Of a stretch of 64,000 bases of DNA, positions 5,643 through 54,867 are shown in pieces (positions within the stretch are counted from its first letter, which is position 1; each line of letters starts with the position of its first letter). The DNA comes from Thermoplasmatota archaeon (GTDB lineage Archaea; Thermoplasmatota; Penumbrarchaeia; Penumbrarchaeales; Penumbrarchaeaceae). A program made the position numbers and the translations under genes. The stretch is taken from the NCBI GenBank assembly GCA_965234725.1, contig CBDDUX010000007.1, positions 1 to 64,000 of the forward strand. The letters run 5' to 3'. Below the pieces are notes generated by a model. The model did not search any database. It saw only the letters and a program-made list of their open reading frames with translations, and was not told where the DNA came from.

Positions 5643-8225
5643 TCAGGATGAATATCTCTTGGCATCCACGAACCTGCCCTTGGATTTCAGCATGGATACT
5701 ATCTCGGTCTTCACTTTTGCATAATAGAAGGGGAGCTTCAGTTCATCAAGGATGGAAAGGGATAGGTCCAGGTCCTCGATCATCTGATTGTATTCCTTCA
5801 TCAACAGATGAAGTCTGCCAAGGTCCAGATGGACCATTGCTATCTTGTACCTCTCTCCTATGCTTGAGAATATCCTCAGGGCCTCTTCGAGGTACTCACC
5901 AGCTGTGTCTGGTTCATTGTCCATGATATATACATGTGCGGCACCTGCAAGAGCGTATGCCTGCAATCTAATATCCCCTGTCTGGCTGCAGAGTTCAATG
6001 GCATCTTCGAAATTGGATATCGCTTTCTCGTACTCCTCTGTAGATGCCTGGACCGTCCCAAGGTTGATCTTCACCCTGGCAAGTTCGATCGCGTTCTCAT
6101 CCCTCTCCAGTGCTTTGATCGCCTTTTCGAACTGATCGATCGCCATTTCCGGCTGGTCCTGATTGGAGTGGATTATGCCGAGGCCCGTATGGGAAACAGC
6201 TTCAAGAGTGGTGTCATCCAATTCAATGGCAATGGTCAGGGCTTCCCTCAAGGACCTCTTACCCTCCCTGAACTCACCTCTTGTGGAATGGAGCTCTCCA
6301 AGAGCCTGTAAGGCCTTTGCCATCTCTACATTGTTCTGGAGTTTCCTGGCGATCTTCAGAGCCTTTTGAAGCCTCTTTTCAGCGGCTTCTTTCTTACCCC
6401 TTCTGGACTCGATCTGACCCAGTCTGAGGTTTGCCCTTCCTGAGATGAGCGGTCTGTTCTCTGCCTCAGCAATAGCTGCGGCCCTTGTCAGGTCAGATTG
6501 GGCCCTGTCCCATCTTCCCATCACCATCTGCAGCTCTCCCTGAAGCAGATGAGTGGTGGCATTGTATTCACGGGTCTCTTCGTTCATCTCCTTCTCTAAA
6601 AGGGAAAGAACCGACGAGAACTGCTCGATAAGACCCTTGGTTATTATCGATTCTCCATAGGTGGAGGCCAACTTCAATGCTTTCAATGGCTGTCCACCCA
6701 TGGTCATGTGGAACATAGCCTCAACAGTTGCCCTCTCATATCCTGTTTCCATGTAGTAGTCCGCCGCTTTCCGGTGGTATTCCAGCTTCTGTTGAGGGGT
6801 CAGCCTGTTGTAGAAGAACTCCTTGATCAGATCATGTGCCTCGTACTCATCGTACGATGTCTCCTGGATCAGATTGGATTCCACTAGCTTGTCCAGTGTG
6901 GTGAAGTCCAGTCCTTCTTCCATGAAGAAAGCCTCGGAAGGTACAGGGTACCTGTATACAGAAGCGATCTGAAGCAATAGGGAGGTTTTTGTATCCAGTT
7001 TCTTGAAGATCTCCTCATAGATATATCGCTTGATATCCTTCTGGTCCTCAAGGTCCTCAGCCGAGAGAATGAGCTGTATGAAGAGGGGATGTCCTTTTGT
7101 GATCTCGTAGACCTTCTCGAACAGTTCCTCCCCCACATCCCTAATCTTTAGCAGACCTCTGCAGCTTTTCCTGTCAAGACCAGTGAGGTTCATTTCCTTG
7201 ACAACACCTTTGACCAGCACGTCGGACCTGTCATAGAACGGGAACACCTGTCTTCCAACCACTATGATCTTGAGGCTCTCCATCTGTGGAACTATCTCCT
7301 TGAGGTTTGAGAAGAGGTCCACGATCTCATCAGCTGCCCTCTGGAAATCATCGAACACCATGAACAGCGGGACATCTCTCAAGGAAGATTCAATGATGGA
7401 GTAGTATTCCTTGCTGTCCAGCCTGGTATTGGAATCCAGGTAGGTCTTGAGTCCGGACCTACCAAGCTGGTCCAGGAACCTTGCCATGGAATAGAGGACA
7501 TTCCTGAGAGAATCCCACCTGTGGAACCTGTACCACATGACATGCATCTTTCCCTCCATGTCCTTGACTGCCTTTGCAGCAAGTGTGGTCTTTCCGATAC
7601 CCGCTATACCGGTTATGGAAAGTATCGAACCTCCAGTATCTTCCAGCCATTGATCTATTAACAAGAGTTCCTCGTCCCTTCCATAGAACCTCTTGGGCAT
7701 GGGGACGTCCTGTATGAAAGAGACAAAACCCTCCGATCCCATTCTTCCCAGTGGTTCCACCTCGCCGGATAGGAAACCCCTTATCTCCTTCTCCGTGACC
7801 AGATCATCATCGTTGACCAGCTGGTGGATATCTATCAGAGGCATGTTGATACTGAGATAGGATGCCAGGTCCTTCATATAGATCTCCTTTATGGATCCGT
7901 CAACAAGCTGCAGGAACACCTTGTGATAGGCTATCTCATCTTTGACCTGCTTTGCATATTCCAACCCTTTATCTGTGAGAAAATAGGCCTTCCTCTTCCG
8001 TGGCAGACCCTTGATCCTCTTGAGGATGTCATTTACAAGGTCCTCCTCCTTGAGTTTCTTCATTGTTCTGGGGATATTGTCCCTTCTAATGGATACGGCC
8101 TCGGCTATCCCATCCTGAACCACGCTCTGAGGAACCTCAAAATCCATCTCGGAGTGTTTTACCTCGTATAGATGTAACAGTATCTTCCTGTCAACGGTAA
8201 GATGAGGGGGACCTTCGACAGTCAT
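5643..8225 (-). CDS. wHTH + STAND-type (NB-ARC-like) ATPase + TPR regulator
   Basis: N-terminal winged helix (RKRKAYFLT), FYGR, Walker A GIAGIGKT, Walker B VFDDF, GHPL motif, multiple TPRs. Confidence 0.85.
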   Translation of the reverse strand: MTVEGPPHLTVDRKILLHLYEVKHSEMDFEVPQSVVQDGIAEAVSIRRDNIPRTMKKLKEEDLVNDILKRIKGLPRKRKAYFLTDKGLEYAKQVKDEIAYHKVFLQLVDGSIKEIYMKDLASYLSINMPLIDIHQLVNDDDLVTEKEIRGFLSGEVEPLGRMGSEGFVSFIQDVPMPKRFYGRDEELLLIDQWLEDTGGSILSITGIAGIGKTTLAAKAVKDMEGKMHVMWYRFHRWDSLRNVLYSMARFLDQLGRSGLKTYLDSNTRLDSKEYYSIIESSLRDVPLFMVFDDFQRAADEIVDLFSNLKEIVPQMESLKIIVVGRQVFPFYDRSDVLVKGVVKEMNLTGLDRKSCRGLLKIRDVGEELFEKVYEITKGHPLFIQLILSAEDLEDQKDIKRYIYEEIFKKLDTKTSLLLQIASVYRYPVPSEAFFMEEGLDFTTLDKLVESNLIQETSYDEYEAHDLIKEFFYNRLTPQQKLEYHRKAADYYMETGYERATVEAMFHMTMGGQPLKALKLASTYGESIITKGLIEQFSSVLSLLEKEMNEETREYNATTHLLQGELQMVMGRWDRAQSDLTRAAAIAEAENRPLISGRANLRLGQIESRRGKKEAAEKRLQKALKIARKLQNNVEMAKALQALGELHSTRGEFREGKRSLREALTIAIELDDTTLEAVSHTGLGIIHSNQDQPEMAIDQFEKAIKALERDENAIELARVKINLGTVQASTEEYEKAISNFEDAIELCSQTGDIRLQAYALAGAAHVYIMDNEPDTAGEYLEEALRIFSSIGERYKIAMVHLDLGRLHLLMKEYNQMIEDLDLSLSILDELKLPFYYAKVKTEIVSMLKSKGRFVDAKRYSS

Positions 8226-12111: not shown

Positions 12112-13908
12112 GTGAACAAGATGGAAGTCAAGGATAGGATCGCTGGCCTAAGGGAATTGATGAAGCAGGAGGGCATTCAAGCCTACCTGGTACCCTCGAC
12201 CGATCCGCACCACAGCGAATATTTGCCGGAATTCTGGAAGAGAAGAGAGTTCATTTCAGGTTTCACAGGGTCTGCCGGAGATGTGATCATAACCATGGAT
12301 GAAGGAGGTCTATGGACCGATGGCAGGTATTTCATACAGGCGGAGGAGCAGCTCAAAGGATCAGGGATCGACCTGTATAGGATGGGGATGCCGGATGTAC
12401 CCAAACTGGAAGATTGGGTTGCTGACAAGCTTTCCGGAGGAGGTATCCTCGGAGTGGATCCCAGACTGCTATCAATGGAATCATCGACCAAGCTCAGCAA
12501 GATCCTGTCGGAAAAAGGAGCTTCGATCAAGTACATCGAAACCAACCTTGTAGATGATATCTGGGATGACAGGCCCTCCCCATCGGAAGCTCCTCTTGAG
12601 GTCCTCTCCCTGGAATTCACAGGGGAGAGCATTGAGGACAAACTGGGAAGGATAAGGAAGAAGATGGGATCAAAGGATTGCACTTCCCATATATTGTGTT
12701 CACTGGACACCATAGCCTGGACATTCAATATGAGAGGGAAGGACATCGATTTCAATCCGGTTTTCATATCATATGCTGTGATCACCAAGGACAAGGCCCA
12801 TCTCTTCATTGATACCCGTAAAGTAACAGAAAAGGTGAAAAAACATCTGGGCGATCTGGTGGAGGTTCACCCATACCGGAATATCGCCTCTTTCCTTGAA
12901 GGGACAGCAAAGGAAGAGGAAAGGATCTGGATCGATCCTAAGACAACGAACAGATGGCTGATGATCCCCCTCGAGGGAAAGGTCAAGCTGCACAAGGATA
13001 GGTCTCCGGTCACCGACCTGAAATCAGTGAAGAACGATACCGAATTGAACGGTTTCAGGACATGCCTCGTCACTGATGGTGTCGCCATGGTCCGTTTCCT
13101 CAAATGGCTGGAAGGAGCTGTTCCAAATGGAGGCGTCACCGAACTATCTGCCTCGGCCAAGCTAGAGGGCTTCAGAAAAGAGGGAAAGGATTTCGTAGGA
13201 CTCTCCTTCACCACCATCGCAGGATATGCGGAACACGGTGCGATAGTACACTATGATCCTACACCCGAATCAGACGTTGAACTGAAACCTCAGGGAATAT
13301 TCCTCCTTGATTCGGGAGCACAGTATCTGACCGGAACCACCGATATCACGAGGACCGTCACATTGGGAGAGCCAACCGATGAGCAGAAGGAGATGTTCAC
13401 CAGGGTCCTCAAAGGCCACATCGGTATTGCAACATTGAAGTTCCCCAAGGGTTTCTGTGGAAAACAGCTGGAACTGCCCGCAAGGAAATCGCTCTGGGAT
13501 GTGGGCAGGAACTACAATCATGGCACTGGCCATGGCGTGGGCCATTACCTGAATGTACACGAAGGACCCATGGGCATCACTCCCAGGGACATCGGGGTGC
13601 CACTCCTTGAGGGGAATGTTCTATCGAACGAACCCGGGTACTACAAGGAAGGCGAGTACGGCATCAGAATAGAGAACCTGATAGTCGTCAGGAAGGATGA
13701 GAAGCTCTCATCTCCGAACCTGGAGTTCCTCGGCTTCGAGACCATAACGTTCTGCCCCATCGACAGGGACCTTATCAAGAGGGAGATAATGACAGAAGAA
13801 GAGGTCCTGTGGCTGAACGATTATCACAGGCAGGTATTCGAGAAACTATCCCCCCATCTGGATGCGGAGCATAAGGAATGGCTCAAGGAGAAGACAGGGG
13901 AGATATGA
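12112..13908 (+). CDS. pepP: Xaa-Pro aminopeptidase (M24B, long form)
   Basis: DPHHSEY, FTGSAG, WTDGRY, DSGAQY..GTTDITRT, HGTGHGVG..LNVHEGP, SNEPGYY, GIRIEN; start 12112 (GTG) or 12121 (ATG). Confidence 0.95.
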   Translation: MNKMEVKDRIAGLRELMKQEGIQAYLVPSTDPHHSEYLPEFWKRREFISGFTGSAGDVIITMDEGGLWTDGRYFIQAEEQLKGSGIDLYRMGMPDVPKLEDWVADKLSGGGILGVDPRLLSMESSTKLSKILSEKGASIKYIETNLVDDIWDDRPSPSEAPLEVLSLEFTGESIEDKLGRIRKKMGSKDCTSHILCSLDTIAWTFNMRGKDIDFNPVFISYAVITKDKAHLFIDTRKVTEKVKKHLGDLVEVHPYRNIASFLEGTAKEEERIWIDPKTTNRWLMIPLEGKVKLHKDRSPVTDLKSVKNDTELNGFRTCLVTDGVAMVRFLKWLEGAVPNGGVTELSASAKLEGFRKEGKDFVGLSFTTIAGYAEHGAIVHYDPTPESDVELKPQGIFLLDSGAQYLTGTTDITRTVTLGEPTDEQKEMFTRVLKGHIGIATLKFPKGFCGKQLELPARKSLWDVGRNYNHGTGHGVGHYLNVHEGPMGITPRDIGVPLLEGNVLSNEPGYYKEGEYGIRIENLIVVRKDEKLSSPNLEFLGFETITFCPIDRDLIKREIMTEEEVLWLNDYHRQVFEKLSPHLDAEHKEWLKEKTGEI

Positions 13909-13909
13909 A

Positions 13910-14143
13910 ATGGAAGAGGGATCCTGGATGGATGACCTCTACAACGAGATCTTCGAATCCAGACTGGAATATCTGTTGAAAAGAAGGGAAAAGGACCCGT
14001 CCTTCACAAGGGAGGATATGGAGAAGATCCTTTCTGCGGAATACTGTAAACAGGACCTTGCCTGGGCCGGCAAGTCACCGGTCCAGGAGATCACAGATTC
14101 CGCTACAATAGCTGCCTATGAGCATTTCCTCACCCAGTGGTGA
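13910..14143 (+). CDS. Small hypothetical protein
   Basis: ATG 1 nt after the pepP stop; helical 77-aa ORF. Confidence 0.6.
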   Translation: MEEGSWMDDLYNEIFESRLEYLLKRREKDPSFTREDMEKILSAEYCKQDLAWAGKSPVQEITDSATIAAYEHFLTQW

Positions 14144-14232
14144 ACCCTGCCAATTAGAATGAAAACAGGATCTCTTCTTTCTTATTTGACCGTGCAAGTC
14201 ATGATCTTGATTTTGTCGTCACGTTCGGGCAA

Positions 14233-21141: not shown

Positions 21142-21343
21142 CCAGTAAAGGTAGGTCTTAATACCGTTTTCAATTTTTTATGCTGTTTGAATGTTTTAAT
21201 CTTACTTTTAACTGAACGGGGCTATCCTTCTTTTGAAAATATTTCTCCTAGCAATTGGTGCGATAGTAATTATTTGCGAAGAACATATGAGTGGGGGCAC
21301 ATATAAATATTCATTCACATATGTCTGTGATAAATTGATTCAT

Positions 21344-22746: not shown

Positions 22747-23154
22747 TTGAATGACTTGCCCCTTTATAAAGTAAAAGCCCTTTCTAAATGTATGGATGAA
22801 GACTCTGCAGAAAGGCTTAATACAGCATGTAAATGCTTGGATCTTCCCAAACCCTCAAAGGATGATTGGTTGGAGATGGAAGACAAGAAAATTCAAGAAA
22901 TTTCCTCCCTTTTCAAATCATTGTCCGATCCGATCAGAATAAGGATCATCGAGATATTGTCGAAGGATTCACTATATGTCTGTTTAATCCAGCATCTGCT
23001 TGATGAGATTAAATATTCAAAACTGTCGTATCATCTTGATATCTTGAGGAAAGGAGGGGTTGTGGATTCAGAGAAGCAAGGTAATTTCGTTCTATATTTC
23101 CTGACACCTTTGGGAAAGAGGCTATCTTCGGATATTCTTTTAATCAAGAAATAA
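22747..23154 (+). CDS. Second ArsR/SmtB family regulator
   Basis: FKSLSDPIRIRII, LYVC, SKLSYHL..L, GNFVLY; N-terminal CKC; start uncertain. Confidence 0.88.
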   Translation: MNDLPLYKVKALSKCMDEDSAERLNTACKCLDLPKPSKDDWLEMEDKKIQEISSLFKSLSDPIRIRIIEILSKDSLYVCLIQHLLDEIKYSKLSYHLDILRKGGVVDSEKQGNFVLYFLTPLGKRLSSDILLIKK

Positions 23155-23587
23155 CCAGCTTCTCCAAATCTATATCGAGCAAATGAACCAATTCTGAATC
23201 TATCCAATTGGATATTTCATCCCTAGTTTTTCTGAACAGATCGTATTGTTCATCTTTGGAACCTTTAAAGTCAGACGGATCCTGAAATCCCCTGTGGATG
23301 TACTCTATTGCACCAGGAAAGAAAGGACAGCTTTCCTTGGCATTGTCACAGACAGTGATAACGAGGTCAATTTTCTCATCAATGAATTCTTCAACGCTCT
23401 TTGATCTGTGTGAAGTTATATCGATTCCGATCTCCTTCAAACATTTTATTGCCAGAGGGTGGATCGTTGATGGCTGTGTTCCTGCACTGGCCACATCAAC
23501 CCTATCTCCGTATTTCTTTTTCATCAAACCTTCAGCCAATTGCGATCTTGCCGAGTTGTGAGTACAGAGGAATAGTAATTTCTTCAT
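23144..23587 (-). CDS. arsC: Thioredoxin-dependent arsenate reductase (LMWP fold)
   Basis: P-loop CTHNSARSQ, TVCD..ESCP, DP. Confidence 0.94.
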   Translation of the reverse strand: MKKLLFLCTHNSARSQLAEGLMKKKYGDRVDVASAGTQPSTIHPLAIKCLKEIGIDITSHRSKSVEEFIDEKIDLVITVCDNAKESCPFFPGAIEYIHRGFQDPSDFKGSKDEQYDLFRKTRDEISNWIDSELVHLLDIDLEKLVIS

Positions 23588-44850: not shown

Positions 44851-46335
44851 ATGGAAGGATACGATTGCGAAGCAAGGAATGATGAGGAGACCATAAGGAA
44901 ATTTGCCTTCGATCGAAGTGGATACAGGTTAACACCGAAAGCAGTAGCCTTTCCCAAGGATGAGGATGAGATATTGTGTCTCATTGAAAATTCCAGGGAA
45001 ACGGGAGTTCCGATCATACCCAGAGCAGCAGGTTCAAATCTATCAGGTAATGCTGTGGGTGAAGGGACCATTGTTGTGATGACAGGTATGAATAAGTTGA
45101 TATCTTCTCAGAACGGAAAGTCCAGGATACAGCCAGGTCTTGTCTATGATAGATTGAATGAACTCATGAAAAACGATGGTTTCTTCCTTCCATACCATGT
45201 CTCATCCTCAGCATTTTGCACGATAGGGGGCAATGTTGCAACAAGAGCTTCCGGTCTGCGGTCGATAAAGTACGGAACAGTTGATAATTCGGTTAGAAAT
45301 ATCAGATTCGTATCTCCTGCCTGGGGTGTTGTCGATACTTCAAAGGATCTTCCAAATGAACTTGAAAGGAAGTTGCTTGAGATCAGGGGAAGATTGCTAT
45401 CAGATAAAGAGGCAATGAAAGAGCTGGATCGTAAGAAGGAACTGAAGACCTCTACCGGATACAATCTCAGGTCATTTATCACGTATAATGAACCGTCAGA
45501 GATGCTTGCACATCTCCTCGTAGGTTCAGTTGGGACACTGGGGATCTTTACAGAGATCGAGGTCAGATTGGAGCCGATCCCTGAAAGAAGGGTGATGGTG
45601 GTCTCCTTCTTCGATTCGATTGTATCCGCAGGCAGAGCGGTTCCCGAACTGAGAAAATTGGAACCATCCCTCCTGGAATTGATGGACGGATTCGGAACAT
45701 CCATTGTGAGGGATGATACCGATATCTTGGTCCCTGAGAATGCTGGAGCTACTCTTCTGATAGAGTTCGATTCTGAGATCGATAAAGGTCTTGAGAACCT
45801 CTATCCGATACTTGAGAAGCATGCACTATATCATCATCTTCTTGAAAATGACGAGGACCAGAAGAGATTGTACAAGCTGAGATGGAAGATGCTCATAGAG
45901 ATCAAGAGGAAGAACGAGACACCTGAAATGAAATACCTCTCATTCGTCGATGATCTGGGTGTTCCAATTGAAGAGATCCCTGAATTCATAGAGGAGGTCC
46001 ATAAGATATTCGAAGAGGAGGATATCCAGGCAGTTATCTATGGACATATCGGAGAAGGGAACCTCCATATCAGACCGCTTATAGAGAAGGATAACTGGAA
46101 AGAAACCATGAAAAGAGTGGGTGCAAAATGCTTCAATTGCGCTTTCAAGCATGGTGGTACCGTTGCTGCGGAACATGGTTCCGGAAGGAACAGACTGGGA
46201 CTTATTGAGGAGGAGTGGGGGGAGGTGGTTTTCGGATATTTCAAGGAGATCAAGGACCTCTTCGATCCCGATGATATAATGAATCCAGGCGTTCTCTTCT
46301 CAAAGGGTGATATCACGGACCATCTCGAGTTTTAA
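44851..46335 (+). CDS. FAD-binding 2-hydroxyacid dehydrogenase (GlcD/D-LDH/D-2HGDH family)
   Basis: PRAAGSNLSG, CTIGGNVAT.ASG, TGYNL, GS.GTLG, GHIGEGNLH, AEHGSG, DP..IMNPG. Confidence 0.9.
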   Translation: MEGYDCEARNDEETIRKFAFDRSGYRLTPKAVAFPKDEDEILCLIENSRETGVPIIPRAAGSNLSGNAVGEGTIVVMTGMNKLISSQNGKSRIQPGLVYDRLNELMKNDGFFLPYHVSSSAFCTIGGNVATRASGLRSIKYGTVDNSVRNIRFVSPAWGVVDTSKDLPNELERKLLEIRGRLLSDKEAMKELDRKKELKTSTGYNLRSFITYNEPSEMLAHLLVGSVGTLGIFTEIEVRLEPIPERRVMVVSFFDSIVSAGRAVPELRKLEPSLLELMDGFGTSIVRDDTDILVPENAGATLLIEFDSEIDKGLENLYPILEKHALYHHLLENDEDQKRLYKLRWKMLIEIKRKNETPEMKYLSFVDDLGVPIEEIPEFIEEVHKIFEEEDIQAVIYGHIGEGNLHIRPLIEKDNWKETMKRVGAKCFNCAFKHGGTVAAEHGSGRNRLGLIEEEWGEVVFGYFKEIKDLFDPDDIMNPGVLFSKGDITDHLEF

Positions 46336-46375
46336 AATGAGAATGTTTTTCTCTCATCAGATGTATGGAAGATGG

Positions 46376-46600
46376 ATGACCACAATCCCCATAGTTGGAT
46401 TCAGGGATAAGACAAAGAAGAAAAGGCTGGAGATCGAGGTCATCGAAGCCACCATGAGGACCGAGGACCTTCCCAAGGAATTCGATTACTTATGCCCGGC
46501 ATGCTTCTTTCAGACCAATGATTTCTCGGTCCTCTGTCCGAAATGCGGTCACAAGGGTCTCAAAGAGAGCGGGAAGGACCGGTTCAGAGTCGTCAAATAA
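46376..46600 (+). CDS. Small zinc-ribbon protein
   Basis: CPAC ... CPKCG. Confidence 0.65.
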   Translation: MTTIPIVGFRDKTKKKRLEIEVIEATMRTEDLPKEFDYLCPACFFQTNDFSVLCPKCGHKGLKESGKDRFRVVK

Positions 46601-46618
46601 AATTCAAGGGAATAGTTA

Positions 46619-46744
46619 TCATCGACACATCGAATGAGTAATGGCATCCCTGGGACAAGCATTTACACAGGCACAGCAGGAGATGCATTTTGAAATATCG
46701 ATGCAATCCGACTTTCCATTCTTATCAACTATCAATATCTTCAT
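46619..46744 (-). pseudogene. Duplicated 3' half of the ferredoxin gene (41-codon open frame)
   Basis: Translates MKILIVDKNGKSDCIDISKCISCCACVNACPRDAITHSMCR*. Confidence 0.85.
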
Positions 46745-47147
46745 ACTTACTGCAGATATCTAACAATTCAGAGGCTTTCATTATCCTGATCTCATTCACA
46801 TTCCTCAAAGATAGCAGATGCCTATCACCGATAACAATAATGTTGGCTTTGGATTCGAGAGCGCACTCAATAATAATATTATCCTTCGGATCCTCCAATA
46901 CGATTTCAACTTTTTCCCGGGGAAGAACAACCTCGAATGATGATATGATAATCTCTATGAACTCTTTCACTTCCGTCTCAGTGAAATCGAACTTATTTCT
47001 GGTCGTAACTCCCATGAATTCCTCAATTATCGATGGTGATATAAATCCATGAAGATCCCCATTCAATATCTTCTGCATCAAAAGGTATTCAGGTCCTTTC
47101 CAACCAAGGGAAGAGATTAGAACGTTCGTGTCAAGAACAACTCTCAT
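46725..47147 (-). CDS. vapC: PIN-domain (VapC-like) toxin
   Basis: MRVVLDTNVLIS, EE, DPKDN..IECA, GD.HLL. Confidence 0.93.
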   Translation of the reverse strand: MRVVLDTNVLISSLGWKGPEYLLMQKILNGDLHGFISPSIIEEFMGVTTRNKFDFTETEVKEFIEIIISSFEVVLPREKVEIVLEDPKDNIIIECALESKANIIVIGDRHLLSLRNVNEIRIMKASELLDICSKYEDIDS

Positions 47148-47427
47148 TCTCTTCTTCCCCTTCTTCTTTCATTTCCTTTCTGACCTCTCTGACAGCGTTA
47201 ACAACATCCTCTCTCGTAATTCCATTAACTTTGAACTTTTCACTTATCCTCTCAGCAAGTTGTTCAAAGGCCTCAGAGGGTGCCTTTTTCTGTTTAACTA
47301 TGATCATCTCATCGTTGTAATAGAACTCCAGCACAGACCCTATGTCTATACCGGTTGCTTTCCTTATCTTCTTTGGAACGGTGATCTGCCCCTGTCGGGT
47401 CACGACTCCACTGCCAGCATATTGCAT
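47131..47427 (-). CDS. AbrB/MazE-fold antitoxin
   Basis: VTRQGQITVPKKIR..GI..G..LEF; overlaps the PIN start; GGTGAG RBS. Confidence 0.92.
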   Translation of the reverse strand: MQYAGSGVVTRQGQITVPKKIRKATGIDIGSVLEFYYNDEMIIVKQKKAPSEAFEQLAERISEKFKVNGITREDVVNAVREVRKEMKEEGEEENESCS

Positions 47428-47436
47428 TTACTCACC

Positions 47437-47461
47437 ATACTATTATTAGTAGGAATAGTAT
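47437..47461 (-). promoter_or_regulatory. Palindromic operator upstream of the antitoxin
   Basis: ATACTATT-N9-AATAGTAT directly upstream of the RBS. Confidence 0.65.
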
Positions 47462-47499
47462 TTATTTTTTCTTTACAAAAAAAGAATCTGTGTGATACC

Positions 47500-47715
47500 T
47501 TATGAACACATCGAATGAGTAATGGCATCCCTGGGACAAGCATTCACACAGGCACAGCATGAGATGCATTTTGAAATATCGATGCAATCGGACTTACCAC
47601 TCTTATCCACTATCAAGATCTTCATCGGGCACGCCTGAGCGCATTCTGAGGATCCTGTACATTTCTCAAGGTCCACGGTCCAAGTGACATCTGCATGTGA
47701 ATAGGTCCTGTTCAT
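47500..47715 (-). CDS. Small dicluster ferredoxin
   Basis: CTGSSECAQACP (second Cys replaced by Ser) and CISCCACVNACP. Confidence 0.9.
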   Translation of the reverse strand: MNRTYSHADVTWTVDLEKCTGSSECAQACPMKILIVDKSGKSDCIDISKCISCCACVNACPRDAITHSMCS

Positions 47716-50444: not shown

Positions 50445-51215
50445 TCAAACATCCATCTCGTAATAGACCTGAAGAAAGACGGTCTCCATGAAGGTCATCA
50501 TGAACAGAGAGATGACTATCGAAAGTAATGGCACCATGCTGAGTGCCAGAATGAAGATGAGCACAAGAGATCCCAGAGCCAGACAGAAGGTAAAGTTCCT
50601 GAAAACGAACATGTAGGACCTCCGTATACATTCCCAGCTAGAGGCTCCTTCCTTGTATCTGATTATGAATATCAGGTATTGTGTCGGGAGCATTACAATT
50701 GAAATGATCATCAATGACAGATAAAGAACTGCCACTCCGAAGAACATGACAACTGGTGCCACCATCATTACAAGTAGAATCAATCCCCCGATCGTTCCCA
50801 ACACTACTGCATATATCATGAATGAGATAAGCATGTTCAGGAGGACAAGTCCGATATAGCTCCGGAACACGGACCTTCCATATTTGAAGACATCCCCAAA
50901 GGATATCTTTTCGCCCCTGAACTGCTTTTCTACCGCATTTATTACACCTGGATTCAGGAAAGCCGAAAGTAACGTTCCTAAAATGATAAGCACGACATAC
51001 ATTATCCCTATTAGAACGATCAGAATGATTATCCCGAAAGAATCAATGAAGAGAGTGGAAAACATCACTATGAAAAAGATGACTATGGCAAATGGTATGA
51101 TTATTATCTGCGCCACCATCGATATCAGGAATGTCTCAAGAGAGATGATCAGGAATGGGTTGAAATCCGCCTTCCATCTGTCAAATGCAGCCAGTAGCGC
51201 ATCGACCGACCTCAT
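50445..51215 (-). CDS. Hypothetical multi-TM membrane protein
   Basis: About 6 hydrophobic helices. Confidence 0.7.
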   Translation of the reverse strand: MRSVDALLAAFDRWKADFNPFLIISLETFLISMVAQIIIIPFAIVIFFIVMFSTLFIDSFGIIILIVLIGIMYVVLIILGTLLSAFLNPGVINAVEKQFRGEKISFGDVFKYGRSVFRSYIGLVLLNMLISFMIYAVVLGTIGGLILLVMMVAPVVMFFGVAVLYLSLMIISIVMLPTQYLIFIIRYKEGASSWECIRRSYMFVFRNFTFCLALGSLVLIFILALSMVPLLSIVISLFMMTFMETVFLQVYYEMDV

Positions 51216-51321
51216 CTTGCAACACCTCGACCATGATCTCTGTCTGAACAAAGGATAAGGGAATTGAATTCTCCTTTCTACCTTAGGAGAATAACCCTAT
51301 CATAAGATAAAAAGATACCAT

Positions 51322-52116
51322 TCATTTCCTAGGCGTATAATGCCTGGCAAGCCAACAGCATAACCCGTCAAGTCCCGGAAATAGGACCCTTTCGTTGATG
51401 TTGGCCTGATCCAGTTTATCTCGAACCTCCCATTTGATCTCCTTGGGAACAATGACCTTCCTCCAGATATCCGGATATTTGGAAAGGATATCCTCCATCC
51501 TCCTGGTGGAGGATGATGTCACGGAATGCATGGAATACTGATTGATCAATCTGTAATCCATGGATGGGGGATCGAAGAACAGGACGAAATCTTCCTTAGA
51601 TATGTTATCGAATTCCTGAAGCGATGTGGCAACGTTTGCAAGCATCTCAACAGTGAATCCATTGGCACCTTCGTGATCGAGCTCTTTCTTGAAAACTTCC
51701 GGTATCCTCTCATGCATCTTCACATAATCAACCATCCAGATGGCACCATCGACATCATACAGTTCGATATCGCAGGTTGCGAAGTGCATGGCCACAAAGG
51801 GTGAAAACGTCCAGTCCAGAAGTCTTGTCGGAAGTCCGTGATGCTGGGCGATCACGAGCCAGTTCCATGTGGAGAAACCATCGCTCCTTTCCACCCTGGC
51901 ATATTTCTTGAAGTTCCTCATCAAATGGAACTCCAGGTCCTTGTATTGGCCCCCCAGCCTCATCAGTGAGGTCTCAAGGGTATTATCGGAAGATGAGGCT
52001 CCTCTGAATGCGAAACTTGACCTGAACCTGCTTAGATGATCGTCCCAGGAATCGACATAGAGCTCCTCAATGAGTTCGGTCCATGATCCGACTTCGATAC
52101 TGTTATCATCTTTCAA
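51322..52116 (-). CDS. FRG-domain protein
   Basis: FRG, AQHHGLPTRLLDWT.SP.VA.HFA, LFPGLDG. Confidence 0.93.
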   Translation of the reverse strand: MKDDNSIEVGSWTELIEELYVDSWDDHLSRFRSSFAFRGASSSDNTLETSLMRLGGQYKDLEFHLMRNFKKYARVERSDGFSTWNWLVIAQHHGLPTRLLDWTFSPFVAMHFATCDIELYDVDGAIWMVDYVKMHERIPEVFKKELDHEGANGFTVEMLANVATSLQEFDNISKEDFVLFFDPPSMDYRLINQYSMHSVTSSSTRRMEDILSKYPDIWRKVIVPKEIKWEVRDKLDQANINERVLFPGLDGLCCWLARHYTPRK

Positions 52117-52172
52117 AGAGCTTCCTCGATCATGAATATGACATATCCCGAATAAAACCTTTCACATCACAC

Positions 52173-54152
52173 TCAACCATCGAAATGTGACAATACCCGG
52201 GAATATATCTCCTTCTCATTACCCTTTGACCTGGCCTGAAGCTTCCGAAGAATGAGTTCCGGTGTTGACCTGGCATGTTTTCCTATTATGGGACTTCTAT
52301 CAACTATCAGTTCATGCCCCTCGTCAAGACCTCTGGCCTCTATCCCATCGACACGGCAGTCCACGAACCTCATTATCTCTGCTGCCATATGGGTAACAAC
52401 GACGGAATAGGCGTCCCTCAGCCTCAGTTCATCAACGAAGACCCCTATCACTCTAGAGGCAGCCTCTAGTTCGGTCATGGCTTCCAGCTCATCTGCCAAT
52501 ACCATCGAACCCTTGTCAACTTCCAGTACAAGTGGTAGGAGCTCTTTTAAAAAACCTTCAAGACCTCCTGCGTCAAGCCTCCTTTTAGGCCTGTAATAGA
52601 AGAGGTCTCTGATATCCGGAATAAAGGACCTTTCGGCGGGAACAGGGAGGCCCATCCTTGCCATGATCAGAACCTGGGCCATCGTCTCGAGGAGGGTCGT
52701 CTTTCCTCCGGAGTTCGCTCCTGTTAACAAAGCTGTCCTTGATCCTGATCTTTCCCTGAAAGGGAACATGGACCCGGCAAATCCAGGGACCTCGCCCAAA
52801 TGGTAATCCACCAGCTGTCTGTCATCTCTCGCCCTAATCAAAAGATGACATGCCTTGTGGATGCCAAACCATCCGTCAACGACCTTGAATGTATTGAGAT
52901 CATTGTCCTCAACGAAACATCCAAGACCGAATTTGAAATCAAGGTCAAGTGCCCAGGAGATCTCTTCTTCGATATCCTTCCGGAGGGATGCAAGTTTCTC
53001 TGCGATGTCTTGTTTCCTCTCATACCTTTCAGTTTTGACCCCTCCCTCGATCTCCGATATCATCCTTTCAAGGGTCTCTTCATCGGTTCTCAAAGGATAA
53101 CCCATCACAAACAGGTCCTTTCTCTTTCCAATCTTCTCATAGACTAGTTCCGCAGCCTTTTTGGAATGTGATCTGTAGATCTCCCTGAGAGCCGGAGGTT
53201 CCTCTGATGAAAGGATGGACAATGTGTCAGTTCCGGAAAGTGTCAATCCCTCTATGCTTTCCTTCAAAGAACCTTCCACTTCGGTCCTTATACCATCCAC
53301 AACCTCCCTGATCCTATCAGGACCCGGAGCATCTATCGTAAGACCTCTGAACTCTTCCAGAAGGGTAAGGGCTTTCGAAGCTGAACCTTTCTTTCCGAAC
53401 ATCTGCTCCAATCTGGAAAGGGATATCAGCTGTTGCTCCCTTCCACCGAATACTTCAAGTATGGTCTCCGGAACGATCCTTTCAGGCGCGGACTTGTAAT
53501 GGACTGCTCCGACCAGTGGTAAATGTGTCTCATCCAGCTCCCTCCCTGAATAGACCAGTACCATATCTCCTTCAATCCCTGGTTCCAATTCCTCAGGTGA
53601 GACAACCATACATCTACGATCCAATCTGAGTTCGGATATCCTGGCATAAGCTGTCTCGTCCTCCACAAGCAGGATATAGTTCAGTTTGCTGCCTGTTCTT
53701 ATACCTTTTAAAGATCTCCCGATGTTCCGAAGGTGATCGGTCACTTCAGCTCTATCCTTCCCGCTGACGAGGACCTTGAACTTGAAGACCTCTTCCGCTT
53801 CCTGCTCTCTTTTCTTAATATCACCACAAGGGATCAGAAGCGACACCTTATTCCTCCCGGAGGAGGTGTTCATGTAGTCCCTCAGTTCTTCAATGATCGA
53901 TTGATATACCGACCATGAACCCTCGGTCCTCAGCAAGTTGGATGGGTCCTCGCCCCTGAAGGCAAGGATAAGGTCCACTGCTGTCCTTTCAGAAATACGG
54001 TCAAAAGACGATAAAGCGGCCACATCTCCCTTGGAGAGAAGTTCCTCGAGCTTGCCTCTGCCCCCCACAGAGTCTGTTAGAAGCTTTACCCTTCCCTCAC
54101 CGAAACCCTTGACTTGTAGCAGCCTATCGATCCCACCCGTTACCGGGTCCAC
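52173..54152 (-). CDS. Archaeal MutS2/MutS5-like ATPase with N-terminal helix-hairpin-helix
   Basis: VKGFGE HhH, TGANSGGKTTLLE, LADELEAMTE, VVTH, STPELI; no Smr domain. Confidence 0.88.
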   Translation of the reverse strand: MDPVTGGIDRLLQVKGFGEGRVKLLTDSVGGRGKLEELLSKGDVAALSSFDRISERTAVDLILAFRGEDPSNLLRTEGSWSVYQSIIEELRDYMNTSSGRNKVSLLIPCGDIKKREQEAEEVFKFKVLVSGKDRAEVTDHLRNIGRSLKGIRTGSKLNYILLVEDETAYARISELRLDRRCMVVSPEELEPGIEGDMVLVYSGRELDETHLPLVGAVHYKSAPERIVPETILEVFGGREQQLISLSRLEQMFGKKGSASKALTLLEEFRGLTIDAPGPDRIREVVDGIRTEVEGSLKESIEGLTLSGTDTLSILSSEEPPALREIYRSHSKKAAELVYEKIGKRKDLFVMGYPLRTDEETLERMISEIEGGVKTERYERKQDIAEKLASLRKDIEEEISWALDLDFKFGLGCFVEDNDLNTFKVVDGWFGIHKACHLLIRARDDRQLVDYHLGEVPGFAGSMFPFRERSGSRTALLTGANSGGKTTLLETMAQVLIMARMGLPVPAERSFIPDIRDLFYYRPKRRLDAGGLEGFLKELLPLVLEVDKGSMVLADELEAMTELEAASRVIGVFVDELRLRDAYSVVVTHMAAEIMRFVDCRVDGIEARGLDEGHELIVDRSPIIGKHARSTPELILRKLQARSKGNEKEIYSRVLSHFDG

Positions 54153-54748
54153 TCCCCCACCTCCGATTCCATCACCCTTTTACCCTCGTTCCGGGGCCAT
54201 TTAAGAAGGGTAACGGACCTCCTCCCGTCCTCATTCCTCTCGATCTCCATCAAACCATCGGATGTGTAATCCGCGATGTCCGGAAATCTTGTCCCACCCA
54301 GGACCATGGTGGCCATGCCCATATACCTGGCTTTGGAAAGGATATCCTCGAGTCCCTTGAACCATTTGTCGGCACCTCTCATTCCCAGGACCTCGGGTCT
54401 GTCGAGTACCATCCTTCCGACAGCTCCTTCCTCGATCGTTCCCAGGATCATATCAAGGGATCCAAGTTCGGTAGTGTTGAGGAATAGAGGTTCGTCGGTT
54501 ATGAAAAGGGATCTGTAGTTCTCCCTGTCCTTGAGCCTGATCAGATGATTTGTCAATGGAACTGATGTGAAAGACACATACAATCCTGGTTGTCCCAGTT
54601 CAAAACCCCGGGAAATGAACCTCAGAGTTAGATCTGTTTTATCAGAGATCGGGGCCCCCATAATGGCCAGGACCATACCGGAAGGTATACCTCCACCTAA
54701 AAGACCGTCTATAGGACGGATACCCAGATCGAAAACCTCTTCGACCAT
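54140..54748 (-). CDS. RAD55/KaiC-like RecA-fold protein with degenerate Walker A
   Basis: GI..IDGLLGGGIP.G, GAPISDKT, LYVSF, RMVLD, LLKW; overlaps the MutS start. Confidence 0.78.
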   Translation of the reverse strand: MVEEVFDLGIRPIDGLLGGGIPSGMVLAIMGAPISDKTDLTLRFISRGFELGQPGLYVSFTSVPLTNHLIRLKDRENYRSLFITDEPLFLNTTELGSLDMILGTIEEGAVGRMVLDRPEVLGMRGADKWFKGLEDILSKARYMGMATMVLGGTRFPDIADYTSDGLMEIERNEDGRRSVTLLKWPRNEGKRVMESEVGEWTR

Positions 54749-54867
54749 TTGCCTTCCCCTGTATATCCAAGGGGTCGAAGTGTTTCCACCTAGAAAAAGG
54801 TTTACCGAAGGGTAAGTGAAATAATCAACAATATGCAATATCAAACATTAATTATCATCAAAGGACC

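Follow-up and report, generated by a model that had tools for sequence, protein, structure and literature searches.

A toxin–antitoxin cassette inserted at the 3′ end of an archaeal ferredoxin gene, bracketed by a duplicated gene tail and possibly acquired without an integrase

In a Thermoplasmatota archaeon, a compact toxin–antitoxin (TA) operon lies directly behind a ferredoxin gene and is bracketed by two copies of that gene's 3′ end. Comparison with two cassette-free sites indicates that the cassette is an insertion, and that the copy on its far side, an orphan gene tail, runs on into the downstream flank of the host. As the best explanation we tentatively favor, at a little under an even chance, that the cassette came in without an integrase, by one-sided homology, on DNA from an allele already occupied by it. 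The features are compiled in Table 1; coordinates refer to the 64,000-nt window, i.e. the whole stretch of DNA analyzed, on the forward strand of contig CBDDUX010000007.1 (assembly GCA_965234725.1).

Table 1. Annotated features of the ferredoxin locus and its cassette, in window coordinates
Feature	Position	Strand	Description
Ferredoxin, working copy	47500..47715	-	complete, 71 aa, two Fe-S cluster motifs, ends MCS*; Fer4 E=2.8e-10
Proximal repeat copy	47506..47625	-	codons 31–70 of the 71-codon working ferredoxin
Cassette leader	47428..47499	-	between ferredoxin stop and antitoxin ATG; functional labels putative
AbrB/MazE antitoxin (predicted)	47131..47427	-	98 aa; PF04014 E=5.6e-10
PIN_3 toxin (predicted)	46725..47147	-	140 aa; PF13470 E=4.5e-18
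Distal repeat copy (orphan ferredoxin tail)	46625..46744	-	codons 31–70; Fer4 E=2.4e-6
Orphan tail ORF (distal copy plus 46619–46624)	46619..46744	-	41 aa, ATG start, ends MCR*
Stretch without counterpart in empty sites	46745..47505	-	761 nt, by alignment to congener G004
Convergent neighbor, small zinc-ribbon-like protein	46307..46600	+	Zn_ribbon_NOB1 E=0.0015, weak, below the Pfam cut-off

The direct repeat described in the initial annotation is real: its two copies are identical at 113 of 120 bases (94%), start 881 nt apart and are the only ones in the 3.5-Mb genome, with exact runs of 39, 14, 29, 5, 3, 7, 8, and 8 nt between the mismatches. A repeat of this length is beyond chance, as the best score among 340 cross-locus control pairs of comparable flanks did not exceed 16. 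The working ferredoxin, which also matches dicluster families in Pfam, shares 95.7% amino acid identity with the sole ferredoxin of the congener G004. As the annotation also stated, six of the seven differences between the copies are synonymous and one is an N/S replacement, a clear synonymous excess (23.3 synonymous versus 96.7 nonsynonymous sites; Fisher p=1.7e-4). It had concluded that both copies look like once-working alleles; this conclusion is weakened when the changes are polarized with G004. About three changes are then assigned to the working copy, every one of them synonymous, and about three to the orphan, two synonymous plus the N/S replacement, so that divergence after an in-place duplication may explain the differences.

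The two tails differ from each other at 7 nt and each from G004 at 13 nt, which points to a second tail derived from the same species complex, and they appear close enough for homologous recombination. Their ends differ in the last codon and stop. As in G004, the orphan runs through CGA TGA, and an 18-nt spacer then leads to the zinc-ribbon gene; the orphan's stop lies 18 nt from the stop of that convergent gene, the proximity from which this copy had been proposed to be the original host tail. In the working copy, TCA TAA is followed at once by a T-run and cassette DNA. Ferredoxins of the genus end one residue after MC, followed by the stop (MCR in G004, MCV in G003, MCS in G001). Given this genus-typical end and the T-run, the end of the working copy resembles the genuine ferredoxin end of another allele rather than a random insert. 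The insert contributed at the very least a new final codon and stop to the working gene.

Between the repeats we find what had been reported there: a leader with a putative operator and ribosome-binding site, an AbrB antitoxin gene, and a PIN toxin gene, with no recombinase ORF. The arrangement is that of type II TA systems, with the antitoxin first, both genes on the same strand and an overlap of 17 nt, and both proteins score above the Pfam cut-offs of their families. The antitoxin combines an N-terminal AbrB/SpoVT-MazE fold (DNA-binding) with an acidic C-terminus. From its domain content the cassette is thus a self-contained, VapBC-like type II TA operon, with toxicity and neutralization both predicted. 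Read on the minus strand, the leader opens with a run of seven T directly after the ferredoxin stop and contains a TATA-like box rich in A and T (AAAAAATAAATA), a palindrome (ATACTATT-9 nt-AATAGTAT) as candidate operator, and GGTGA 5 nt ahead of the antitoxin ATG. The segment from ATAAATACT to the ATG is conserved in the AbrB–PIN loci of two other genomes (G008 and G034), and the cassette appears to have its own promoter and operator in common with these loci. The 761-nt stretch without counterpart thus holds the new last codon and stop, the leader, the antitoxin gene, and the toxin gene minus its stop; together with either repeat copy it makes up the 881-nt insertion. Its GC content is 39.2%, compared with 45.4% for the genome, at the 10th percentile among 761-nt windows.

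A single ferredoxin ending in MCR* next to the zinc-ribbon gene had been predicted for an empty site in relatives, and exactly this arrangement is present in G004 (~85% nucleotide identity to the locus). A second empty site lies on a 925-nt contig of an independent metagenome (X3, ~93% identity), which links position 46608 to position 47505 with 15 other letters in between. Each empty site corresponds to the absence of exactly 881 nt. Another population (X2, ~95% identical) carries the cassette with ~4.7% divergence over 729 nt, its ferredoxin and most of its orphan tail lying outside the cover; it seems to share the junction between PIN gene and tail, which suggests that the insertion event is old. 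At the same spot, G001 has an FG-GAP gene and an MNT-HEPN pair, and G003 a DUF7948-Fic/DOC ORF. The zinc-ribbon gene, with orthologues in G004, G003, and G001, forms the other edge of this variable spot; the interval between the two genes is therefore a gene-turnover spot, filled in G001 and G003 and empty in G004 and X3. Neither of these other occupied sites, in G001 and G003, shows a tail duplication.

Close relatives of the cassette were absent at the DNA level from its own genome and from 41 relatives. The nearest protein matches reach at most 43% amino acid identity in a genome contig collection (12 loci), at most 46% in a metagenome contig collection (36 loci), and 50% among all 24 genomes of the family, and a collection of 5.8 billion proteins returned the cassette protein itself and a next best match of 50%. 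By these comparisons the cassette is unique across all collections searched. Nor did the 41 relatives, the 24 family genomes, and the collections contain a possible donor allele, that is, a ferredoxin ending in MCS* with the cassette directly behind it.

The initial annotation had suggested looking for the PIN/AbrB pair beside ferredoxin halves or other duplicated gene tails. Ferredoxin pieces were found near none of 50 related PIN loci; the same layout does, however, recur at other genes. Bracketing repeats scoring above all 340 cross-locus null pairs occur at 6 of 39 non-redundant loci (5 of 38 without the window), compared with 1 of 65 shifted control windows (Fisher p=0.011, or 0.025 without the window). 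In the five other cases, direct repeats of 18–43 nt tightly flank the cassette, several of them exact or near-exact (18/18, 30/30, and 42/43 nt), and the repeat copies the end of the adjacent gene in at least four of the five. In at least five of the six bracketed cases, one repeat edge lies between ~6 nt ahead of the end of the target's stop codon and 13 nt past it; the non-repeat inserts measure ~712–809 nt in all six. For example, in G016, a member of the same archaeal family, a homologous cassette is bracketed by a 43-nt copy of the tail of the prolyl-tRNA synthetase gene (ProRS), ending at the stop; its congeners G007 and G012 have a single ProRS tail and no cassette, providing two empty sites. 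The metagenome locus L064 carries three cassettes with interleaved repeats in the order a-A-b-a-B-b, as expected from tandem joining of two alternative occupied alleles, and its repeats illustrate that a gene head or an earlier junction can also be copied. Related cassettes of DPANN archaea share 65–89% DNA identity over ~720–730 nt, from the TATA box to the PIN stop, with unrelated flanks; across seven related cassettes no att-like shared end was found, this TATA-to-stop segment being all that is common.

Searches for further parallels returned several candidates that we set aside. A genome-wide scan for short repeats 450–1600 nt apart yielded mostly internal repeats of large surface-protein genes and a single candidate of note. 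On contig C74 of the same genome, an orphan zinc-ADH tail has diverged from its working copy with a dN/dS of 0.26 (p=0.0016), implying that the orphan was once a working allele; it is not a clean parallel, since G004 also has the intervening methyltransferase beside its ADH gene. The repeats that flank an AbiEi/AbiEii pair on C106 are members of a multi-copy family, and those on C109 are a 122-nt palindromic repeat with six copies. Among the loci of related cassettes, the repeats turned out to be paralogous flanking genes (L034 and L060), elements inside tRNA tails (L040), internal repeats of an AAA gene (L068), or a hairpin with three local copies more like an attC array (L082).

The acquisition that we tentatively favor would have started in a related lineage carrying the cassette directly behind its own ferredoxin, one ending in MCS*. 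A donor fragment that began inside that ferredoxin tail and stopped where the PIN gene ends would have recombined with a cassette-free chromosome, sharing homology on one side only, in the ferredoxin tail. It could have circularized and then integrated through a single crossover, or homologous recombination could have attached one of its ends and an illegitimate join the other. Either route would yield, in order, the ferredoxin 5′ part, a tail and behind it donor DNA, the cassette, the displaced resident tail, and the resident flank. The working ferredoxin would stay intact, the PIN gene would lose its own stop and borrow one inside the orphan tail, and no element-encoded enzyme would be required. 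The observed boundaries fit, in that the tails are homologous and the PIN 3′ end meets ferredoxin codon 31 without homology. Recombination between the two tails would be expected to remove the cassette cleanly, with one ferredoxin gene restored, and toxin activity after antitoxin loss would select against such a loss.

Homology-facilitated illegitimate recombination, raised as an alternative in the initial annotation, lies close to this best explanation. As described, it combines homologous entry at one end with an illegitimate join at the other (PMC3240628), and alternative pairing of a donor fragment is described as a source of transformation-induced tandem duplications (PMC3784515). Both processes likewise dispense with an element-encoded enzyme. 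They were observed in bacterial experiments, whereas we infer the mechanism of a natural event in an uncultured archaeon, with a small duplication that preserves the target gene as the outcome. Homologous recombination at the core genes that flank them has also been proposed as the way in which compact TA islets spread (Belot et al, 2026; PMC13617665).

Several observations sit less easily with acquisition by one-sided homology. The closest relatives of the cassette are only 50% identical in protein, and the first landing of the cassette just behind a stop codon is pushed back rather than answered. The repeats of 18, 30, and 43 nt at other loci are short for homologous recombination and fit target duplication at insertion at least equally well. 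Moreover, with the G004 polarization, all seven differences in the window could be later divergence.

A duplicative illegitimate insertion, in which fill-in would make two identical 120-nt target copies and the seven differences would arise later, seems unlikely. The polarized changes of about three per copy fit such later divergence, and the timing is compatible, the 5.8% divergence of the tails falling between that of X2 (with cassette, ~4.7%) and X3 (empty, ~7%). With target duplications of variable length, the same route would cover the other bracketed cassettes, whose repeats are in several cases exact or nearly so, copy whatever sits at the site (including the gene head or earlier junction at L064), and surround cassettes without conserved ends, TIRs, or att sites. 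Against this, a random insert would have had to supply exactly one codon and a stop, then a T-run, and a random staggered break would not be expected to place repeat edges so consistently near stop codons. The orphan ADH tail on C74, for its part, diverged under purifying selection. We also know of no mechanism for target duplications spanning 18 to 120 nt.

The cassette might instead be a miniature integrative element mobilized in trans by a tyrosine recombinase, moving as an 881-nt circle with the ferredoxin tail as attP, which we regard as rather improbable. Cis-mobilizable elements offer a model: they lack an integrase and share their att sites with a helper element that encodes one. The resemblance lies in direct repeats of the attL/attR kind that occupy a conserved gene's 3′ end, one edge coinciding with the end of the gene, and in the restoration of that gene; archaeal elements in 3′-distal gene parts have such repeats as well. 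In the Thaumarchaeota, 14 of 68 integrated elements are listed as using 3′-distal parts of protein genes, and repeats of 29 to 69 bp are given for crenarchaeal integrated elements (PMC6563490). One related cassette lies between repeats resembling a tRNA 3′ half and adjoins tRNA-Val, and a search for tyrosine recombinases elsewhere in the genome, as had been recommended, returned seven PF00589 matches, all on other contigs. However, this contig carries no integrase, nor do the flanks (up to 3 kb) of the other bracketed cassettes, and no helper with a shared att site was found here, in contrast to cis-mobilizable elements. The G001 and G003 inserts lack a tail duplication, and no integrase-bearing element at that spot uses the ferredoxin tail. 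The related cassettes share only the promoter-to-stop segment, hence no attP, and their targets vary from case to case. Viral contigs contained no relative of the ferredoxin or the PIN gene, and no repeats with 1–4 kb spacing bracket the related cassettes apart from one paralogous gene pair. The mini-element reading of the initial annotation, an integrase-free element that targets the ferredoxin, thus stands as regards the insertion and the absence of an integrase in or next to the cassette. For its targeting part we see no evidence, the cassette being unique and 0 of 50 related loci having ferredoxin pieces, although recurrence at other genes lends the reading some indirect support.

That the cassette is the remnant of a larger plasmid or virus once integrated in the ferredoxin tail and later reduced to its addictive TA pair seems highly improbable. 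A stepwise model from mobile-element acquisition through streamlining to TA-only islets has been put forward (PMC13617665), and deletion would be expected to spare the TA pair. The deletions, however, would have had to end no more than ~40 nt from the promoter on one side and among the final PIN codons on the other, and a like tightness recurs in all six bracketed cases, with no intermediate sizes seen. The lack of bracketing repeats 1–4 kb apart likewise gives no sign of larger decaying elements.

We see only a very slim chance that the locus is an assembly artefact, either an empty site and a separate 881-nt circle or two strain alleles chained wrongly. The copies share an exact 39-nt stretch, at which the likely source run's contigs (X1), assembled from 31-letter words, break. 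In that run, three unique contigs have depths of 2155, 2411, and 2446, and the shared 39-nt piece about double (5000). Two strain alleles would split the depth, so the near-equal values argue against the two-strain mis-assembly that the initial annotation had named as its refutation. At the level of 31-letter words, integrated form and empty site plus circle use the same words and look alike in depth; the integrated order rests on the equal depths and on the assembler, which placed the repeat in a 127-kb contig, as reads and words longer than 39 nt resolve it. A circle without a replicon at exactly one copy per chromosome is, moreover, unlikely.

It is barely credible that the TA pair once had a tandem ferredoxin duplicate around it that has since decayed. 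The orphan does keep an ATG, its reading frame is open, and its CxxCxxCxxxCP motif is complete. The two complete tandem ferredoxins that had been named as a refuting arrangement, however, occur in no relative examined, all eight related loci have one ferredoxin each (tblastn), and nothing of a ferredoxin 5′ half remains upstream of the orphan, which the PIN 3′ end abuts directly. We also rejected an integron gene cassette, as the repeat is a coding gene tail whose single-strand folds, examined for attC-like structure, are no better than shuffles (z −0.84 and −0.39); a search of RNA/structure families with the repeat gave zero matches. A transposon or IS was set aside in the same way, with no transposase ORF, no inverted-repeat pair at the cassette ends (0 of 8), and repeats without a fixed short length (120 nt here, 18–43 nt in related cases).

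Known systems share individual features with the locus. At rhs and cdiA loci, a new gene end with a companion gene displaces the old end, which is left downstream as an orphan; there, the displaced part is a toxic tip with its immunity gene, not the tail of a housekeeping gene. The pdif modules of Acinetobacter plasmids are small modules, TA pairs included, that are moved without a recombinase of their own, but their boundaries are Xer sites of fixed sequence, and this locus has none. The prophage e14 (like phage 21) inserts into the 3′ part of a protein gene, icd of E. coli, and supplies its working end, and the displaced original tail is described as remaining as a 163-bp pseudo-icd′ (PMC6379469), compared with 120 nt here. 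It differs in being a multi-gene prophage with its own integrase and site-specific excision, whereas this insert is a 0.76-kb TA operon without recombinase. The compact TA islets of Belot et al (2026; PMC13617665) also consist of TA genes only, lack mobility genes, and occupy spots whose content varies among congeners; they concern bacteria. The searched text of that paper does not use the term "direct repeat" and mentions "duplication" once, for near-identical TA copies. No published TA cassette with a duplicated gene tail was found in a literature search whose scope left aside subscription journals and supplements.

How TA pairs integrate is described as still unclear (PMC13617665, 2026), and their entry into chromosomes without a visible mobile element is the open question on which this locus bears: its cargo is minimal, the occupied site can be set against two empty ones, and the displaced gene tail is still in place. 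That distant archaea have the same scar at related cassettes hints that such cassettes spread without a mobility enzyme of their own. Archaeal TA operons may more generally move by an integrase-free route that inserts at gene 3′ ends and duplicates the gene end, a generalization we consider distinctly doubtful. If it holds, bracketing repeats would let a cassette loop out and re-enter related genomes by host recombination only, other one- or two-gene cassettes would perhaps use the same route, and the ferredoxin case would be a well-preserved example of an unrecognized class of tail-carrying mini-elements. In a bolder version, the insertion would be initiated by breakage where transcribed genes have their 3′ ends, or else by the PIN nuclease.

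The locus also holds two traps for annotation. The orphan tail is an open 41-codon ORF with an Fe-S motif, and the C-terminus of the toxin is encoded by ferredoxin DNA in another frame: the last six PIN codons and the stop belong to the orphan tail. As the initial annotation had pointed out, the PIN frame has no stop of its own ahead of the repeat and terminates 20 nt inside it (…YEDIDS*), and joined to the other repeat copy it would read …YEDLDSG*. Among PIN homologues the median length is 134 aa, and their C-termini lie 3–8 residues past an ELL(D/N) motif.

On the minus strand at 46619-47715, four features share one orientation: a complete ferredoxin gene, a leader, a toxin-antitoxin (TA) pair whose genes overlap by 17 nt, and an orphan copy of the ferredoxin tail (see table). 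The orphan matches the tail of the complete, working ferredoxin at 113 of 120 positions, with a start-to-start spacing of 881 nt, and the whole genome (3.5 Mb, 114 contigs searched) contains only these two copies of the repeat. Of the seven differences, one is an N/S replacement and the other six are synonymous (S = 23.3, N = 96.7; Fisher p = 1.7e-4). The ferredoxin tail shows no attC-like folding. Together with the next six bases (46619-46744), the orphan tail forms an ORF of 41 codons ending in MCR*, which starts with an ATG inside the last PIN codons, carries the full CxxCxxCxxxCP motif and could give rise to a mini Fe-S peptide.

Features of the ferredoxin locus and its toxin-antitoxin cassette
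Feature	Position	Strand	Basis
Ferredoxin, complete, 71 codons	47500-47715	-	Fer4 E=2.8e-10; ends MCS*
Leader, 72 nt, between ferredoxin and antitoxin genes		-	sequence
AbrB/MazE-type antitoxin gene	47131-47427	-	PF04014 E=5.6e-10
PIN_3 toxin gene	46725-47147	-	PF13470 E=4.5e-18
Orphan copy, ferredoxin codons 31-70	46625-46744	-	sequence match to working ferredoxin

The PIN reading frame lacks its own stop and terminates 20 nt into the orphan tail, giving a product of 140 aa compared with a homologue median of 134 aa. Homologues terminate 3-8 residues past an ELL(D/N) motif, and these lengths and end positions place the PIN-to-tail junction at the natural toxin end, or a few codons earlier. Directly behind the ferredoxin stop, the leader opens with a T-run; a TATA-like box and an 8-nt palindrome pair follow, and GGTGA precedes the ATG. 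Two related genomes (G008 and G034) conserve the part reaching from the TATA-like box to the ATG in their AbrB-PIN loci, which indicates that the cassette brings a control region with it. The GC content of the cassette is 39.2%, compared with 45.4% for the genome (10th percentile among same-size windows).

Searching 41 related genomes with the DNA of the cassette locus, we found in the congener G004 two matching blocks whose overlap is precisely the 120-nt repeat; the alignment is colinear for the orphan with its downstream flank and also for the working copy with the ferredoxin 5' half. The gene order in G004 (FAD oxidase, zinc-ribbon gene, single ferredoxin ending in MCR*, beta-helix gene, no intervening content) is the empty site predicted in the initial annotation. 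Likewise, in an independent metagenome (X3, ~93% identical), a 925-nt contig links 46608 to 47505 via 15 other letters, and exactly 881 nt of the window are absent. Two complete ferredoxins, previously named as an arrangement that would speak against insertion, occur in none of the relatives examined. The empty sites in G004 and X3 prove that the cassette is an insertion.

From the zinc-ribbon gene to the ferredoxin stop, the content of the interval varies between genomes. It is empty in G004 and X3, and in two further congeners it holds a 525-aa FG-GAP protein with a nucleotidyltransferase-HEPN pair (G001; E=4.9e-9, 3.1e-11) or a 344-aa ORF that combines DUF7948 with a Fic/DOC match (G003; E=2.2e-5), with no second ferredoxin tail at either occupied spot. 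Other genera of the family carry a pirin-like gene (read from sequence) between oxidase and ferredoxin. The gene content of the window is archaeal-type (family B DNA polymerase, a mainly archaeal ATPase family, DUF835, many peptidases), and the runs containing its DNA carry the label marine sediment. Downstream of the beta-helix gene, 50445-54844 encodes an FRG-domain protein, a MutS-domain-V-like protein and a KaiC-like ATPase fragment, and 5643-8225 encodes a STAND-type ATPase with TPR repeats; these genes may be defence-type.

The cassette also occurs at ~95% identity (34 differences in 729 nt) in a population from another study (X2). One X2 contig extends 15 nt beyond the PIN-to-tail junction with no loose end, and a second one extends from the antitoxin across the leader as far as ...CCTTATGA. 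The same structure seems to be present in this diverged relative, which suggests that the insertion event is not recent.

Searches of the genome itself, the 41 relatives and all 24 genomes of the family, of collections of genome and metagenome contigs, of 5.8 billion proteins and of viral contigs gave no match to the cassette above 50% protein identity, and a ferredoxin piece lies near 0 of 50 related PIN loci. This uniqueness and the 0/50 count give no evidence for a family of elements that seeks out ferredoxin. Related cassettes of DPANN archaea are 65-89% identical in DNA across ~720-730 nt, from TATA box to PIN stop; their flanks are unrelated, and they have no terminal sequence in common. 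The mobile unit is the operon itself.

To score bracketing repeats, the sequence immediately 5' of a cassette was compared without gaps with that around its PIN stop and the best match taken, using 53 non-redundant loci (both flanks present in 39) and a null of 340 cross-locus pairs (99th percentile 13, maximum 16). Six of the 39 loci exceeded the null maximum (5/38 without the window), compared with 1/65 for control windows shifted by 1.3 or 2.6 kb at the same loci (Fisher p=0.011; 0.025 without the window). The repeats span 120 nt in the window, 43 nt in L080, 30 nt in L055/L064, 28-41 nt in L050/L045/L026, 18 nt in L038/L037 and 26-30 nt in L063/L062, the last being tRNA-3'-half-like and adjoining tRNA-Val. 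At all six loci, the left repeat stops just 5' of the cassette promoter, the right one begins at -19 to +17 relative to the PIN stop end, and the insert minus repeats measures ~712-809 nt. For at least four of the five loci other than the window, the end of the adjacent gene serves as the repeat, with one edge a few bases from its stop codon; bracketed cassettes are either co-oriented with the target gene or convergent. In the best case, from a genome of the same archaeal family (G016), a homologous cassette is bracketed by the terminal 43 nt of the prolyl-tRNA synthetase gene, up to the synthetase stop, and its PIN stop lies inside a repeat, as in the window; two congeners (G007, G012) have a single synthetase tail and lack the cassette. 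At L064, three consecutive cassettes carry interleaved repeats (a-A-b-a-B-b). Gene-tail-duplicating integration and TA islets are both known already, and the window locus is a variant of both; what makes it valuable is how clean the scar is, and that related cassettes are flanked by the same kind of scar.

We tentatively favour, at somewhat less than an even chance, one-sided homologous acquisition from an allele already carrying the cassette behind the same gene. Homology to the recipient would end where the donor has its cassette and, given tiny intergenic spacers, one repeat edge would fall at the gene end. The far end of the cargo would be cut at the last PIN codons, whereas a fragment reaching shared downstream DNA would leave a scar-free clean replacement. 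The end of the working copy would derive from the donor allele and thus be a natural ferredoxin end (MC plus one residue, stop, T-run; compare G001, G003 and G004), and tails from different alleles would yield diverged repeats with a purifying-selection pattern (6/7 synonymous here; dN/dS 0.26 for a second orphan tail of this genome, on contig C74). Such acquisition would also explain the interleaved arrays, and no enzyme gene would need to accompany the cassette. It matches the spread of compact TA islets by recombination at flanking core genes, as proposed in PMC13617665, as well as homology-facilitated illegitimate recombination (PMC3240628). A donor allele was not found in the 41 relatives, the 24 family genomes or the sequence collections searched, and the first landing behind a stop codon is left unexplained. 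The initial annotation is partly supported: the structure it describes (repeats, orphan tail) is correct, and the mechanisms it names, an integrase-free mini-element or illegitimate recombination, are candidates.

Target-duplicating insertion is rather unlikely, and the short exact repeats of the other cases fit it at least as well as one-sided acquisition. Polarised by G004, about three of the seven tail differences fall on the working copy and about three on the orphan; given this split and the evident age of the event, all seven could represent later divergence, which is compatible with target duplication. A helper integrase using the ferredoxin tail as att site is doubtful: it has a precedent in e14/icd (PMC6379469), and archaeal elements habitually use 3'-distal parts of protein genes (PMC6563490), but the loci examined revealed neither an integrase link nor a conserved attP. 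That the cassette is a streamlined remnant of a larger element is improbable, since no repeats 1-4 kb apart bracket these cassettes, bar one paralogous gene pair, which speaks against slow decay of larger elements.

The metagenome-run contigs compared here were built from 31-letter words, and those of the likely source run (X1) break at a 39-nt exact stretch common to both tails, which is compatible with the integrated order and equally with an empty site plus an 881-nt circle. The X1 depths are 2155, 2411 and 2446 for the three unique pieces and about double, 5000, for the shared piece; therefore, each tail is present once per genome, and the mis-assembly of two strain alleles raised beforehand is contradicted. 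An artefact of wrongly chained alleles, or of an empty site with a separate circle at one copy per chromosome, is highly improbable, as such a circle is unlikely for a unit without a replication gene and reads longer than 39 nt would probably have let the assembler resolve the repeat.

The same genome contains a second orphan tail (dN/dS 0.26, p=0.0016) on contig C74 (4750-6082; L092 1751-3083), where a zinc-type alcohol-dehydrogenase-like (ADH) gene and a SAM methyltransferase gene precede an orphan 52-codon copy of the dehydrogenase C-terminal tail (22/138 nt differ). G004 has both genes as at C74 without a matching orphan; C74 was rejected as a clean parallel to the window, as the G004 methyltransferase also adjoins the ADH gene. 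On C82, a gene for a histidine-kinase-like ATPase and one for a DUF4325 (STAS-like) protein are enclosed by a two-copy 90-nt direct repeat (21201-21290 / 23106-23195; L071; 98% identical); in G003, this gene pair is found at 76% identity on a different contig from the flank. On C106, 93%-identical 100-nt repeats (12167-12266 / 14052-14151; L072) surround an AbiEi/AbiEii toxin-antitoxin pair; they comprise promoter-like sequence and a gene start of 12 codons, and the repeat family has matches on at least nine contigs of the genome. A 122-nt repeat with long inverted ends (C109 29742-29863; also on C108, C22 and C64; six copies, four identical) resembles a miniature inverted-repeat element. In a related genome (G006, contig C25; L082), a 78-nt exact repeat with a long-hairpin fold, in three local copies (66-143, 929-1006, 1323-1347), separates a PIN_2 toxin pair and a small membrane ORF, with the PIN_3 pair adjoining, similar to an attC-type cassette array with no integrase in view. 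Finally, in L040 two related 97-nt elements (639-735 / 1453-1549) each adjoin the 3' end of a tRNA gene, and beyond each element the tail of the respective tRNA is present a second time.
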